Of a DNA stretch of 64,000 nucleotides, positions 30,269 to 45,991 are shown in pieces. This DNA comes from Escherichia coli. GTDB lineage: Bacteria; Pseudomonadota; Gammaproteobacteria; Enterobacterales; Enterobacteriaceae. Under the pieces are notes generated by a model. The model was given only the letters and a program-made list of their open reading frames with translations. It was not told the DNA's origin and made no database searches. Each line of letters begins with the position of its first letter. Position 1 is the first letter of the stretch. Position numbers and translations under genes: made by a program. The stretch is taken from the NCBI RefSeq assembly GCF_030013595.1, contig NZ_CP122768.1, one strand, 5' to 3'.

Positions 30269-30928
30269 ATGAGCGAACAAATCACGTTTGCCACCAGCGA
30301 TTTTGCCAGTAACCCGGAACCACGTTGCCCCTGCATTTTGCTGCTGGATGTTTCTGGTTCTATGAACGGTAGACCTATTAATGAACTTAACGCCGGATTG
30401 GTTACCTTTCGTGATGAACTGCTTGCTGATCCGCTGGCTTTAAAAAGAGTGGAACTCGGCATTGTGACGTTCGGCCCGGTGCATGTGGAACAACCCTTTA
30501 CCAGCGCCGCTAATTTTTTTCCGCCCATCCTGTTTGCCCAGGGCGATACACCAATGGGTGCGGCCATTACCAAAGCCCTGGATATGGTAGAGGAGCGGAA
30601 ACGTGAGTATCGTGCAAATGGTATTTCGTATTATCGCCCGTGGATTTTCCTGATTACCGATGGTGCACCAACCGATGAGTGGCAGGCTGCAGCCAACAAA
30701 GTGTTTCGGGGGGAAGAAGATAAAAGGTTTGCTTTCTTTTCCATCGGTGTTCAGGGGGCGGATATGAAGACGCTGGCACAAATTAGCGTTCGTCAGCCTT
30801 TGCCTCTGCAAGGATTACAATTCCGTGAACTGTTTAGCTGGTTATCCAGTTCGCTGCGTTCGGTTTCCCGCTCCACGCCGGGAACGGAAGTTGTGCTGGA
30901 AGCGCCAAAAGGCTGGACGTCAGTGTGA
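30269..30928 (+). CDS. yegL: von Willebrand factor A (vWA) domain protein, TerY-like
   Basis: 219-aa ORF with a MIDAS motif (LLLDVSGSM ... ITDGAPTD); recognised as YegL. Confidence 0.88.
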
Positions 30929-31686
30929 GCTGGCGTCTGGTCTATGCATCAACCGTTGGAACGTCGCACATCAGCGCGGACTTGCCTTGTCAGGATGCCT
31001 GCCAGATGCAGATTGCCTGGTTAAATGACCAGCAGCCATTATTGTCGGTATTTGTCGCTGATGGCGCAGGCAGTGTCTCGCAGGGTGGCGAAGGCGCGAT
31101 GCTCGCCGTCAATGAAGCGATGGCTTATATGTCGCAAAAAGTGCAGGGCGGGGAATTGGGGCTTAATGATGTCCTCGCCACAAATATGGTACTGACCATT
31201 CGTCAACGACTTTTTGCCGAGGCGGAAGCCAAAGAATTAGCGGTTCGCGATTTTGCCTGCACATTTCTGGGACTGATTTCATCGCCTGACGGCACCTTGA
31301 TTATGCAGATTGGCGATGGCGGCGTGGTGGTAGATTTGGGTCACGGTCTGCAATTGCCTCTCACGCCGATGGCGGGTGAATATGCCAACATGACGCACTT
31401 CATTACCGACGAAGATGCCGTTTCCAGACTGGAAACTTTCACCAGCACTGGGCGTGCGCACAAAGTTGCAGCATTTACGGATGGTATCCAGCGACTGGCG
31501 TTAAATATGCTGGATAATTCTCCTCATGTGCCTTTCTTTACCCCGTTTTTCAATGGACTGGCGGCAGCAACGCAGGAACAACTCGATTTATTACCTGAAT
31601 TGTTAAAGCAGTTTTTGTCCAGCCCGGCGGTAAACGAGCGTACGGATGATGATAAAACGTTGGCACTGGCGCTGTGGGCAGAGTGA
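30925..31686 (+). CDS. pphC: PP2C-family Ser/Thr protein phosphatase
   Basis: 253-aa ORF (YegK); GTG start overlaps the yegL stop (GTGA), implying translational coupling; VADGAGS / IGDGG motifs fit a PP2C fold. Confidence 0.85.
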
Positions 31687-31750
31687 GTTTCTCATGGCGG
31701 TTGAAGACAACAATTCAACCGCCAGTTTAAACAATAAATATAACGGCTGA

Positions 31751-32212
31751 TTAGCGAACTAATTTTGCTCTTAGCTCGTCGGCTTCTTCTTTTGGATAGG
31801 TGACCAATAAAGGATCAATGGTATAACCGCCGTAAATTTTATCCCCGCGCGTATACATCCAGTCTGAAATATCTTCTTTCTTGATTTTCCACTCCTGGCC
31901 ATATTCTACGTTTGTAACAATACCAGGGTCATTGCTGATTACGCCAATAAACATGCCGTTAGAATAAGTGACATCCGTAAGCCAGAAATGCTCGGTTCTT
32001 CCGTGATCGGTTATCGGGGCTTTGACTGCGAAAGTATCGGCATCTTTTTTATTCATAACCTCGATGAATTTATCGGTTTCTTTCCGCGCATGTTTAATCG
32101 CGTCAGACATCGCTTGTTTATCATAACCTCCCGTCACTAACGTATCCGAAACTTCACTAAAGCCCGCGGTAGTAAAAAATAGCAGACTCAACATAAGTAA
32201 TATCTTTTTCAT
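31751..32212 (-). CDS. yegJ: secreted DUF-type protein of unknown function
   Basis: 153-aa ORF with an N-terminal signal peptide (MKKILLMLSLLFFTTAGFS); AT-rich relative to neighbours. Confidence 0.8.
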   Translation of the reverse strand: MKKILLMLSLLFFTTAGFSEVSDTLVTGGYDKQAMSDAIKHARKETDKFIEVMNKKDADTFAVKAPITDHGRTEHFWLTDVTYSNGMFIGVISNDPGIVTNVEYGQEWKIKKEDISDWMYTRGDKIYGGYTIDPLLVTYPKEEADELRAKLVR

Positions 32213-32411
32213 TTTTTCTCCAGAATCCCTTTGTAGTCAAAGTTAGCAAAAACCTGTGGAAGTTAATCATTATCAGGCCGAAATTGAATTGTATCCTGAT
32301 AAAATTGCATTATCATTTTTATTCTTGAGTGGGTTTTCCCCATATAGAAATAATTTTAATGGTTAGTTGTTATTATTCATTGAAATATAATATAACTACC
32401 CGCGAAATATT

Positions 32412-34358
32412 ATGAAAACAAATATAAAAGTATTTACATCGACAGGTGAATTGACCACTCTTGGCCGTGAACTGGGCAAAGGTGGTGAAGGCGCGGTTTA
32501 TGATATCGAGGAGTTTGTCGATAGCGTCGCCAAGATTTATCACACGCCGCCACCCGCCTTAAAACAGGACAAACTTGCCTTTATGGCTGCGACAGCTGAC
32601 GCGCAGTTGTTGAATTATGTCGCCTGGCCGCAGGCAACGCTTCACGGTGGACGAGGCGGAAAAGTTATCGGTTTTATGATGCCAAAAGTTTCTGGTAAAG
32701 AACCGATTCATATGATCTATAGCCCGGCACATCGTCGCCAGAGTTACCCTCATTGTGCGTGGGATTTTCTACTCTATGTTGCGCGCAATATTGCTTCATC
32801 TTTTGCTACGGTTCACGAGCACGGGCACGTCGTGGGTGACGTAAACCAGAACAGTTTTATGGTAGGTCGCGACAGCAAAGTGGTACTGATTGATAGCGAC
32901 TCCTTTCAGATTAACGCCAATGGCACACTGCATTTATGCGAAGTCGGCGTGTCGCATTTTACGCCGCCAGAGCTACAAACCTTGTCGTCATTTGTCGGCT
33001 TTGAACGCACAGAAAATCACGATAATTTTGGCCTTGCGTTGCTGATTTTTCACGTCTTGTTTGGTGGCCGGCATCCTTATTCTGGTGTGCCGCTTATCTC
33101 TGATGCGGGTAATGCGCTGGAGACGGATATTACCCATTTCCGTTATGCCTACGCGTCAGATAATCAGCGACGTGGTTTAAAACCGCCGCCACGATCGATT
33201 CCGCTATCGATGTTACCGAGTGATGTTGAAGCCATGTTTCAGCAGGCATTCACGGAAAGTGGCGTGGCAACCGGGCGTCCGACGGCTAAAGCGTGGGTAG
33301 CGGCACTTGATTCTCTGCGCCAACAGTTAAAGAAATGTCCCGTTTCGGCAATGCATGTTTATCCCGCTCATTTGACCGACTGCCCGTGGTGTGCGCTGGA
33401 TAATCAAGGCGTTATCTATTTTATTGATCTCGGCGAAGAGGTCATTACCACCAGCGGTGATTTTGTGCTGGCGAAAGTCTGGGCGATGGTGATGGCGTCA
33501 GTAGCACCGCCAGCATTGCAATTGCCATTACCCGATCATTTCCAACCGACTGGCAGGCCGCTTCCTTTAGGCCTGTTACGGCGCGAATACATCATTCTGA
33601 TTGAGATCGCACTGTCAGCGTTATCGCTGTTGCTTTGCGGCCTTCAGGCAGAACCGCGTTATATTATTTTGGTTCCTGTGCTGTCGGCTATCTGGATTAT
33701 TGGCAGTCTGACAAGCAAAGCGTACAAAGCAGAAGTTCAGCAACGCCGTGAGGCATTTAATCGCGCGAAAATGGACTATGACCATTTATTCAGCCAGATC
33801 CAACAGTTGGGCGGGCTGGAAGGTTTTATCGCCAAACGGACGATGCTCGAAAAAATGAAGGACGAAATGCTCGGGTTACCGGAAGAAGAAAAACGTGCTC
33901 TGGCAGCACTTCACGACACCGCAAGGGAACGGCAGAAGCAGAAGTTTCTGGAGGGATTTTTTATTGATGTTGCCTCTATTCCCGGCGTTGGCCCTGCGCG
34001 TAAAGCGGCGTTACGGTCCTTTGGTATTGAAACAGCAGCGGATGTTACCCGTCGTGGGGTTAAGCAAGTGAAAGGGTTTGGTGATCATCTGACCCAGGCA
34101 GTTATCGACTGGAAAGCAAGTTGCGAACGCCGTTTTGTGTTCAGGCCGAATGAAGCGGTAACGCCAGCAGACAGACAAGCGGTAATGGCGAAAATGACCG
34201 CCAAACGACATCGGCTGGAATCGACGTTGACTGTCGGCGCGACAGAGTTGCAGCGATTCCGCCTTCATGCTCCAGCACGGACCATGCCGTTGATGGAACC
34301 GTTACGTCAGGCGGCAGAAAAACTGGCTCAGGCGCAGGCAGATTTAAGCCGCTGCTGA
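32412..34358 (+). CDS. yegI: membrane-anchored atypical Ser/Thr protein kinase with C-terminal helix-hairpin-helix
   Basis: 648-aa ORF; kinase-like motifs (GKGGEGAVY, VAKIY, HGHVVGDVNQNS, DSDSF), two hydrophobic helices near residues 395-440, and an HhH (IPGVGPARKAALRSFGIETAADV). Confidence 0.85.
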   Translation: MKTNIKVFTSTGELTTLGRELGKGGEGAVYDIEEFVDSVAKIYHTPPPALKQDKLAFMAATADAQLLNYVAWPQATLHGGRGGKVIGFMMPKVSGKEPIHMIYSPAHRRQSYPHCAWDFLLYVARNIASSFATVHEHGHVVGDVNQNSFMVGRDSKVVLIDSDSFQINANGTLHLCEVGVSHFTPPELQTLSSFVGFERTENHDNFGLALLIFHVLFGGRHPYSGVPLISDAGNALETDITHFRYAYASDNQRRGLKPPPRSIPLSMLPSDVEAMFQQAFTESGVATGRPTAKAWVAALDSLRQQLKKCPVSAMHVYPAHLTDCPWCALDNQGVIYFIDLGEEVITTSGDFVLAKVWAMVMASVAPPALQLPLPDHFQPTGRPLPLGLLRREYIILIEIALSALSLLLCGLQAEPRYIILVPVLSAIWIIGSLTSKAYKAEVQQRREAFNRAKMDYDHLFSQIQQLGGLEGFIAKRTMLEKMKDEMLGLPEEEKRALAALHDTARERQKQKFLEGFFIDVASIPGVGPARKAALRSFGIETAADVTRRGVKQVKGFGDHLTQAVIDWKASCERRFVFRPNEAVTPADRQAVMAKMTAKRHRLESTLTVGATELQRFRLHAPARTMPLMEPLRQAAEKLAQAQADLSRC

Positions 34359-34370
34359 GCCAGTTTTCAA

Positions 34371-35723
34371 TTAACGAAACACCACTTCCGCCCAGCGTGC
34401 CAGCCCGGCGGTGACGGAGCCAAAGTCATCGCCGCCTGCAATCGGAATGCCCGGCAACTGTTCTGCCAGCGCTTTTTTAATCAGCGGCGAACGGGCGCTA
34501 CCGCCGGTCAGGTATATAACGTCCGGTTTTTCCTGGGCGTTATCCAGCGCCAGTTGCACCTGTTCCAGAATTCGCGCAAGCGGCTGGCTGAGGGCGCTTT
34601 CCAGCCCTTGCTGGCTAATCAGCGTAGCCAGTTCATCGCTGATAAACGGCAGTGAGGCGCGAGTTTCCGCAGTGCTGGAAAGAGCAATTTTGCTCTCTTC
34701 TGCGCTGCGTACCAGGCGATAGCTTAAACGCTGACGCCAGACTTTCTGTAACAGGGCCACTTTTTCCGGTTCGCGGGCATCGCGTACCAGATCGTTAAGC
34801 AGACGACCGTTGGCACTACTGTAGAAATCACTCTGCGCAGGAACGTCGTTGATGGCAACCGCATTCCACCACGGCAGAATCGGCAGGGCGATGCCTTTTT
34901 CGGTTTCGCCACCCATGCCCAGTAACGGCATCAGGTTTTTAAACGCCAGCGCGATATCCAGATCGTTACCGCCAATACGGCAACCACTGTGACCCAGCAG
35001 GCTGGCTTCACGATCGAGACGCGAACGCCACTGCGGCCCCATCAGCAGCAATGAACAGTCAGTCGTACCACCGCCGATATCCACCACCAGCACCCGTTTT
35101 TCTTCCTGCAAGGTGGCTTCGTAATCCAGCCCAGCCGCGACCGGCTCGTACTGGAATACCACGTCCCTGAATCCGGCACGCTTCGCCGCGCGTTCCAGAA
35201 TCCCTTGCGCCTGGGCGTTTGCTTCATCGCCGCCAAGCCCCTGGAAGTTGATCGGGCGACCAATCACTGCCTGAGTAATTGCCTCCGGCAGTTGAGCCTG
35301 CGCCTGTTGGCGAATGTGCAACATCATTGCGCAGACCAGATCCTCAAACAGCGCTACCTGCTGCGGTTTTAAGCCGCTGGCACCGAGGAACGATTTTGGT
35401 GATTTCACAAACCACACTTCTTCTGGATCATCAATGTACTGTGCCAGTGAGGAAAGACCGAACTGCACGCTTTTCGCCGTAACATCGATATCTTCTTCGC
35501 GGTTATAACGAATCGCCCGACGCAACAGCGCCTGCGTTTCATCGTCGTCTGCCGGAACATCATGATGGCGGTACAGCCATTCGCTTACCGCTTCACGCGT
35601 TGGCGCGCAAAGCATTGAAGGCAGCAGCGTGCTGTCGTTTTCCATTTTTAGCAAGTGCGGTTTACCGTCACGCATGACCGCCACTGAACAGTTTGCTGTA
35701 CCGTAATCAAAACCAATAAACAC
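34371..35723 (-). CDS. yegD: Hsp70/actin-fold ATPase (DnaK-like chaperone homologue)
   Basis: 450 aa from the GTG at 35723 (VFIGFDYGTANCSVAV..., Hsp70 phosphate-1 motif; VVDIGGGTTDCSLL phosphate-2); the ORF track extends 21 codons upstream without an SD. Confidence 0.82.
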   Translation of the reverse strand: MFIGFDYGTANCSVAVMRDGKPHLLKMENDSTLLPSMLCAPTREAVSEWLYRHHDVPADDDETQALLRRAIRYNREEDIDVTAKSVQFGLSSLAQYIDDPEEVWFVKSPKSFLGASGLKPQQVALFEDLVCAMMLHIRQQAQAQLPEAITQAVIGRPINFQGLGGDEANAQAQGILERAAKRAGFRDVVFQYEPVAAGLDYEATLQEEKRVLVVDIGGGTTDCSLLLMGPQWRSRLDREASLLGHSGCRIGGNDLDIALAFKNLMPLLGMGGETEKGIALPILPWWNAVAINDVPAQSDFYSSANGRLLNDLVRDAREPEKVALLQKVWRQRLSYRLVRSAEESKIALSSTAETRASLPFISDELATLISQQGLESALSQPLARILEQVQLALDNAQEKPDVIYLTGGSARSPLIKKALAEQLPGIPIAGGDDFGSVTAGLARWAEVVFR

Positions 35724-35856
35724 GAAATAATCCCCATGCCGGTGAAGAAGGGGCGTGACTTTAGCGAAATGTTGCCGTCGCGACAACCGGAATATGAAAG
35801 CAAAGCGTAGCGTCTGAATAACGTTTATGCTGAAAGCGGATTAACAAGGAGATGCG

Positions 35857-45523: not shown

Positions 45524-45991
45524 AGTAAGTACAAAACCTATTCGTTGTATGACAAATGTCACAATTCGATCATGGATAAATCGGGGCAAAAATGCAATGT
45601 TGCAGCACTATTTATCTCATATTATTTGAGGGTAATAACCTCACATTATCCCTGAATTAAAAGTGGTAATAATAAAACATTATTTAAGAAATATCGCATG
45701 TGGAGGCGCAATATTAAATATTGTCAACCTAAAGAAACTCCTAAAAACCATATTGAATGACACTTAATATAATTCTTAAAAATAGCCAATTGCCGAATTG
45801 TTACCTTGCCTGCTATTCCGTTAGCTGTAACACTTCCTCCTGCATTATTGGAGAGCCAATATTCAATTACCATAATGTCACCTTATATTCGGAAGTTAAT
45901 TTCCGCAATAACCCTTTCTCATCAACGATTGTATGCTGAGAGGGTGTGAAAAATTAAGCTAAATCAGTGTATTGGTAGCTAAAAAGCCAGG

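Follow-up and report, generated by a model that had tools for sequence, protein, structure and literature searches.

A probable H-NS-bound divergent promoter region in a small foreign insert within the yegL-pphC-yegI operon of Escherichia coli

Results

The yegJ-yegI spacer is an exceptionally AT-rich divergent region

The spacer between yegJ and yegI is, with a probability that we place at roughly three in four, an H-NS-bound divergent promoter region belonging to a short stretch of foreign DNA that interrupts the yegL-pphC-yegI operon, and the inverted repeat found inside it is incidental. The spacer occupies positions 32213-32411 of a 64,000-nucleotide stretch of E. coli DNA (assembly GCF_030013595.1, contig NZ_CP122768.1; the whole stretch is referred to below as the window), whose examined part matches E. 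coli K-12 MG1655 exactly. Reading along the plus strand, the locus comprises yegL (30269-30928, encoding a vWA protein) and pphC, also known as yegK (30925-31686, a PP2C phosphatase), followed on the minus strand by yegJ (31751-32212, a DUF2314 protein of 153 amino acids), then by yegI on the plus strand (32412-34358, a Ser/Thr kinase) and by yegD on the minus strand (34371-35786, a molecular chaperone). Since yegJ and yegI are transcribed away from each other, the spacer lies upstream of both; the initial annotation had placed it upstream of yegI, which is true for that gene but incomplete.

The same annotation had called the interval very AT-rich, and on this point the composition is unequivocal. 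The 199-bp spacer has a GC content of 29.1%, against 52.0% for the window and 37.3% for the strain-variable segment described below, and across the 64 kb, windows of 199 bp that are as AT-rich make up just 0.19% of the total and are confined to two places. The only place other than the spacer itself is located at about 45576-45820 (~31% GC). The spacer contains many promoter-like hexamers, and its small open reading frames are limited to unsupported frames of 26-37 amino acids, none of them credible.

A 785-bp segment replaces the ancestral pphC/yegI junction

Alignment of K-12 with O157:H7 and B places the spacer within a strain-variable, low-GC segment of 785 bp (31678-32462, 37.3% GC), which splits the operon and had escaped the initial annotation. 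From left to right it takes in the last two codons of pphC with its stop, a hairpin, yegJ, the spacer itself and the opening 17 codons of yegI. Its left border falls at 31677/31678, after ...GCGCTGTGG and two codons short of the pphC stop, while the right border falls at 32462/32463, immediately before GGCCGTGAACTGGG, the start of the glycine-rich loop of the kinase. The low GC content is unevenly distributed (41% in yegJ, 29% in the spacer and 29% in the first 51 nt of yegI), and the remainder of yegI is at 51%. The hairpin, GGCGGTTGAA-N8-TTCAACCGCC at 31696-31723, has a perfect 10-bp stem and sits between the convergent stops of pphC and yegJ; a proper T-run follows it on neither strand, and a terminator scan of 31500-32100 was empty.

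When a 1.2-kb query spanning the spacer (31700-32900) was compared with 5426 complete E. coli genomes, 5414 of them matched and 1897 (35%) contained the whole query. In the non-carriers, as judged from a spread sample, homology begins at 32463, inside yegI. O157:H7 and B have yegL, pphC and yegI contiguous, with a 4-bp overlap between pphC and yegI and with neither yegJ nor the AT-rich spacer. The same synteny (mdtBA, yegL, pphC, yegI, yegD, alkA) and the same 4-bp overlap, again without yegJ, are found in E. marmotae, and Klebsiella spallanzanii carries the same three-gene operon with overlaps at another locus, likewise without yegJ. Between mdtA and yegL, the number of Ibs type I toxin genes also varies among strains, with two in K-12, three in O157:H7 and four in B.

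The start of yegI differs between the two forms of the locus. The first 17 codons of the K-12-type gene (32412-32462, plus strand, 29% GC), encoding MKTNIKVFTSTGELTTL, are a diverged homologue of 15 ancestral codons encoding MKPTLYTATGECVTP, and the two 5' ends share about 58% nucleotide identity by a hand count on the alignment. The N-terminus MKTNIKVFTSTGELTTL occurs only in K-12-type YegI, all other YegI homologues starting with an MK.TLYT..G-type sequence. Given the empty site in relatives and the MK.TLYT-type N-termini elsewhere, the K-12 form is derived from the contiguous operon, which is the ancestral state. A plain insertion or deletion was considered and ruled out, as the first 15-17 codons of yegI differ between the forms and are nevertheless homologous; because these starts are homologous but diverged, the junction was replaced by recombination rather than by a clean indel. 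The donor would thus have been a diverged, AT-richer genome that already had yegJ beside a yegI homologue. In addition, to the left of the yegJ insert, the identity of pphC between K-12 and O157:H7 or B drops to 85-92% (window 30950-31700), as low as that between K-12 and E. marmotae, and within yegI it is back to 96-99% after 32463, a pattern which suggests an imported recombination tract that includes pphC.

Searches for a donor of the 785-bp insert returned no phage match, and the matches to records labelled as plasmids were E. coli chromosomal DNA only. Among representative genomes, YegJ was found in Superficieibacter electus alone, at 74% identity, and the donor itself was not found. In S. 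electus and a related metagenomic genome (L010, an ENA metagenome scaffold), yegJ (74-76% identity) lies between yegD and mdtA(BC) in the same orientation as in K-12, and the locus has no vWA-PP2C-kinase operon. An apparently distant YegJ listed at '86%' identity (L014) was discarded, its spacer being identical to that of K-12 and its source a noisy E. coli contig.

The indel has already been published (Rajagopalan & Dworkin 2018, 10.1101/303594, and 2020, 10.1101/819920; Gopel et al. 2026, PMC13232886). These papers describe the same yegJ disruption, noting that B and O157 have the ATGA overlap and K strains a divergent yegJ, and Gopel et al. further report that YegJ binds the N-terminal domain of RNase E and that its over-production damages the envelope/membrane. 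Beyond them, the present analysis adds the base-exact borders, the replacement of 15 yegI codons by 17 diverged ones and the occurrence in 35% of 5414 complete genomes, together with two deep carrier haplotypes, the raised divergence of pphC and the location of yegJ in Superficieibacter-like genomes, where it is flanked by yegD and mdtA. Of the picture presented here, only the borders to the base, the frequencies and the haplotype structure are absent from the literature.

Carriers fall into two haplotype families

A 76-bp probe of the K-12 type matched 1114 genomes at 99% identity or more, and an 85-bp probe of the variant type matched 1886, of which 752 were at 95% or above and 1134, corresponding to the K-12 type, were at 90-95%. 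The variant family consequently accounts for about 752 of the 1886 carriers (about 40%). On these sequence comparisons, the carriers split into a K-12-type haplotype and a variant family, two deep haplotypes. Within the insert, it is the spacer that has diverged fastest between carriers, with 88-90% identity compared to 96-100% in yegJ.

Several individual genomes carry further changes at the locus. In E. coli EC21Z-147 (NZ_CP101210.1), an IS5-like element of the ISKpn26 family is inserted in the yegJ-yegI spacer at TTAG, a site equivalent to about 32244-32247 of the window and located between the ribosome-binding site of yegJ and its predicted promoter. An IS1 element breaks yegI about 40 codons into the gene in four genomes (E. 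coli PSJ-14, ES7, ES8 and NCCP 13717), and another IS1 lies within the yegJ segment in CP137936.1, a 365-kb record labelled as a plasmid. E. coli PEC011 has yegJ, and its yegI is annotated with 646 rather than 648 amino acids.

H-NS and the sigma-70 holoenzyme are reported to bind the spacer

Published binding data cover the spacer directly. By genomic SELEX, Shimada et al. 2014 (PMC3946193, Table 1) recovered both an RpoD-holoenzyme site and an H-NS site in the yegI/yegJ spacer, and by ChAP-seq Higashi et al. 2016 (PMC4720273, Tables S2 and S6) found yegK/pphC bound by H-NS at its 3' end only. In the latter study yegK is one of 42 genes bound in one or two of three strains, a difference tied to a neighbouring strain-specific segment; the segment assigned to yegK is yegJ, present in K-12 only and missing from SE11 and SE15. 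Binding of a nucleoid protein, in line with the silencing that the AT-richness had led the initial annotation to propose, is accordingly present in published data, as a SELEX site in the spacer and as a K-12-specific ChAP-seq signal that depends on the yegJ insertion. The genes residing in the segment are reported to be poorly expressed (10.1101/303594, 10.1101/819920 and PMC13232886). Because H-NS binds the segment and its genes are expressed at low levels, we infer that H-NS silences them; the proposal of silencing by a nucleoid protein is thus supported and was already known as far as binding is concerned. No hns-mutant expression values for yegJ or yegI were found in the readable supplements, those of PMC4288151 containing neither gene. 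The spacer holds no match of at least 8/10 to the high-affinity H-NS 10-mer TCGATAAATT, so no specific nucleation motif can be named.

The segment resembles the strain-specific class of H-NS xenogeneic silencing targets (PMC4720273, with ytfI as its worked example). Its AT content is far above average and its presence is patchy, with an intact empty site in relatives, as in other xenogeneic segments; like the members of that class, it is a low-GC segment found in some strains only, H-NS binding occurs only where the segment is present and spills over into a core gene (the 3' end of yegK/pphC), and the resident genes are poorly expressed. Unlike them, it is tiny, with 785 bp and a single gene, and it sits inside an operon, where it breaks the translational coupling of kinase and phosphatase and gives the kinase a new 5' end.

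Predicted promoters and translation signals

The spacer also belongs to a second known group, that of the Type-A (divergent) constitutive-promoter spacers with H-NS sites (PMC3946193), a catalogue in which it appears at 46.28 min with predicted promoters for both genes. The promoters that PMC3946193 assigns to SELEX peaks are computational best matches rather than mapped starts, and no mapped transcription starts for yegJ or yegI were found in the searchable supplements of published studies. For yegJ, the promoter predicted in that study and by our own scan is the same, ATGATA-17-TACAAT on the minus strand (32288-32316), with the -35 hexamer at 32316-32311, the -10 at 32293-32288 and a start expected near 32281. 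Neither hexamer varies among the 10 E. coli sequences sampled, and the position aligned with the -10 reads TATAAT in S. electus. A good Shine-Dalgarno (GGAG) precedes the yegJ start codon.

The promoter predicted for yegI in PMC3946193, TTGTTA-18-TATAAC on the plus strand (32367-32396), is weak, with a -35 at 32367-32372, a -10 at 32391-32396 and a putative start near 32403. In contrast with the catalogue to which it belongs, its -10 (TATAAC) lacks the invariant final T, and the promoter varies between haplotypes: in the variants the -35 changes from TTGTTA to GTGTTA through the loss of 1 nt immediately before it, and TATTAC, TATGAC or TATTGC stands at the -10. The perfect TATAAT at 32386-32391 does not vary but lacks a good -35. 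There is no Shine-Dalgarno before the yegI ATG, in contrast to yegJ, and the predicted yegI leader measures just 7-9 nt. Over 32100-32520 the scan found seven promoter-like sites, compared with 1.8 +/- 1.3 in shuffled sequences, an excess that is usual for AT-rich DNA.

Within the yegI gene itself (32412-34358), an intragenic Cra site has been reported by Cra ChIP-exo (10.1101/080929); the best matches to a Cra-like consensus there reach only 12 of 16 positions.

The inverted repeat lies over the predicted yegJ promoter

The initial annotation had further singled out an inverted repeat of 7-9 bp at about 32269-32303 with a 17-bp spacing. The repeat and its spacing are real and the coordinates were slightly off: it consists of two perfect arms of exactly 8 bp, TTATCAGG at 32270-32277 and CCTGATAA at 32295-32302, separated by 17 nt (32270-32302 overall), and can be extended on neither side. 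A direct repeat, CATTATCA, also occurs twice in this area (32268-32275 and 32308-32315, 40 bp apart), one copy overlapping the left arm and the other the yegJ -35. The inverted repeat is centred at 32286, which puts it about 117 bp ahead of the predicted yegI start, and it straddles the predicted yegJ -10. Because the repeat sits on the predicted core promoter of yegJ and far from the predicted start of yegI, any action that it had would fall on yegJ.

We weighed the repeat as an operator for yegJ, with a dimeric or tetrameric repressor occupying both arms and covering the -10 and the start. Relative to the predicted start, the right arm spans about -14 to -21 and the left arm about +5 to +12, so that the -10 falls inside the gap, an arrangement reminiscent of the palindromic operators that overlie core promoters (LacI/GalR-type dyads, Fur boxes), given a dyad near -5 and a partial match to a Fur box. 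The left arm, like both yegJ hexamers, is invariant among all 10 sampled E. coli sequences. The right arm, however, has an A to G change, giving CCTGATGA, in each of the 7 variant-family members sampled, with the left arm as in K-12, no compensating change and three substitutions in the adjoining spacer of the repeat; this family makes up about 40% of carriers. A protein could still recognise a palindrome with one mismatch. Upstream of the aligned yegJ in S. electus and L010 the repeat is missing, despite an aligned ribosome-binding site and -10, and across the sampled carriers and relatives the half-sites are thus neither both conserved nor co-varying. (A short hairpin lies 25-45 nt upstream of the yegJ start codon in these two genomes, at a position that differs from that of the E. 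coli repeat.)

The statistics and geometry of the repeat also weigh against such an operator. Of 5000 dinucleotide-preserving shuffles of the spacer, 21.8% contain a perfect inverted repeat whose arms reach 8 bp or more across a gap of 0-30 nt, and the dyad symmetry is within chance for the local composition; the expectation of 0.00 obtained for the repeat refers to its exact 16-base pattern only and not to inverted repeats in general. With arm centres 25 bp apart, about 2.4 helical turns, the half-sites would, on B-DNA geometry, face different sides of the helix, an unfavourable arrangement for a simple dimer; this spacing, like the length of only 8 bp per arm, sets the repeat apart from the known palindromic operators. 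The insert holds no regulator gene, and, again unlike those operators, the repeat has no known or nearby-encoded cognate regulator. Taken together, we consider an operator for yegJ unlikely.

A second alternative assigns the left arm to a Fur box through which iron-loaded Fur would repress yegJ, the palindrome being a by-product of GATAAT-type hexamers. At 32256-32274, a short way downstream of where yegJ transcription is predicted to start, a Fur-box-like 19-mer overlaps the left arm; it agrees with the consensus in 14 of 19 positions and includes a perfect 9-mer half, GATAATGAT, on the minus strand. Only 3.8% of spacer shuffles reach 14/19, and more hexamers of the ATTATC and GATAAA kind are present at 32269, 32298 and 32310. 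These hexamers are not adjacent, unlike those of real Fur boxes, and five other sites of 14-15/19 occur in the 64 kb, mostly inside genes. As the motif was picked after seeing the sequence, from among many possible ones, it is a weak post hoc lead, and no publication tying yegJ or yegI to Fur was found. Repression by Fur is, in our estimation, highly improbable.

Alternatively, the repeat might act as RNA, folding into a stem-loop within a long yegJ leader, or within an antisense or upstream yegI transcript, and so influencing stability or termination. An 8-bp stem can form on both strands (-8.2 and -7.8 kcal/mol), and the A to G change of the variant family would keep a G-U pair on one of them. 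Both strands nonetheless fold weakly: the z-score is -1.46 and 14-17 of 200 shuffles fold equally well, the loop would be 17 nt long with no T-run after it, no terminator was called over 32100-32520 and no Rfam match was obtained at E <= 1 (31500-32600). Moreover, transcription from the predicted yegJ start (about 32281) would include only one of the arms. We rejected this reading, which is hardly credible.

As for the operator that the initial annotation had proposed, for a regulator of the kinase gene, it is not supported: the repeat is at chance level, polymorphic without compensation, absent in S. electus and distant from the predicted yegI start. Most probably the 8-bp repeat arose incidentally from AT-rich sequence of low complexity and would have no function of its own, rather than being a yegI operator.

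Discussion

The preferred reading, a divergent promoter region bound by H-NS within a small foreign segment, implies the following sequence of events. A 785-bp foreign segment would have replaced the 4-bp-overlap junction between pphC and yegI, as found today in about 35% of E. coli genomes, cutting yegI off from pphC and giving it a new AT-rich 5' end without a Shine-Dalgarno. From then on, the expression of yegI would rely on whatever promoter activity the AT-rich spacer offers. The extreme AT content would account both for the many sigma-70-like hexamers and for the H-NS target, and H-NS, by coating the insert, would hold yegJ and yegI silent or nearly so during laboratory growth.

A more ambitious interpretation views the yegJ segment not as a mere passenger but as a selected regulatory rewiring, in which YegI has been moved from translational coupling with its phosphatase PphC to an autonomous, H-NS-gated promoter shared with the divergent yegJ, the gene of the RNase E-binding protein that harms the membrane on over-production. 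The frequency of about 35%, the two deeply diverged haplotypes and the divergence of pphC would then reflect either balancing selection over the long term or repeated import, with two alternative wirings of a single signalling module as its object, and the invariant left arm together with the Fur-like site at the yegJ promoter would serve as an entry point for counter-silencing. We regard this interpretation as improbable.

Under the preferred reading, in which the spacer is a silenced divergent promoter region and its repeat is incidental, the value of the locus as a regulatory discovery is small: H-NS binding and the insertion were already published and the repeat does not hold up as an operator. 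The locus is nonetheless a clear case from nature in which a foreign insert of very small size interrupts an operon for a kinase and its phosphatase and brings H-NS to a core locus. In K-12-type strains the 5' end of yegI, its translation signals and its promoter context are not ancestral, a point to bear in mind when YegI/PphC signalling in K-12 is compared with that in B, O157 or clinical strains.
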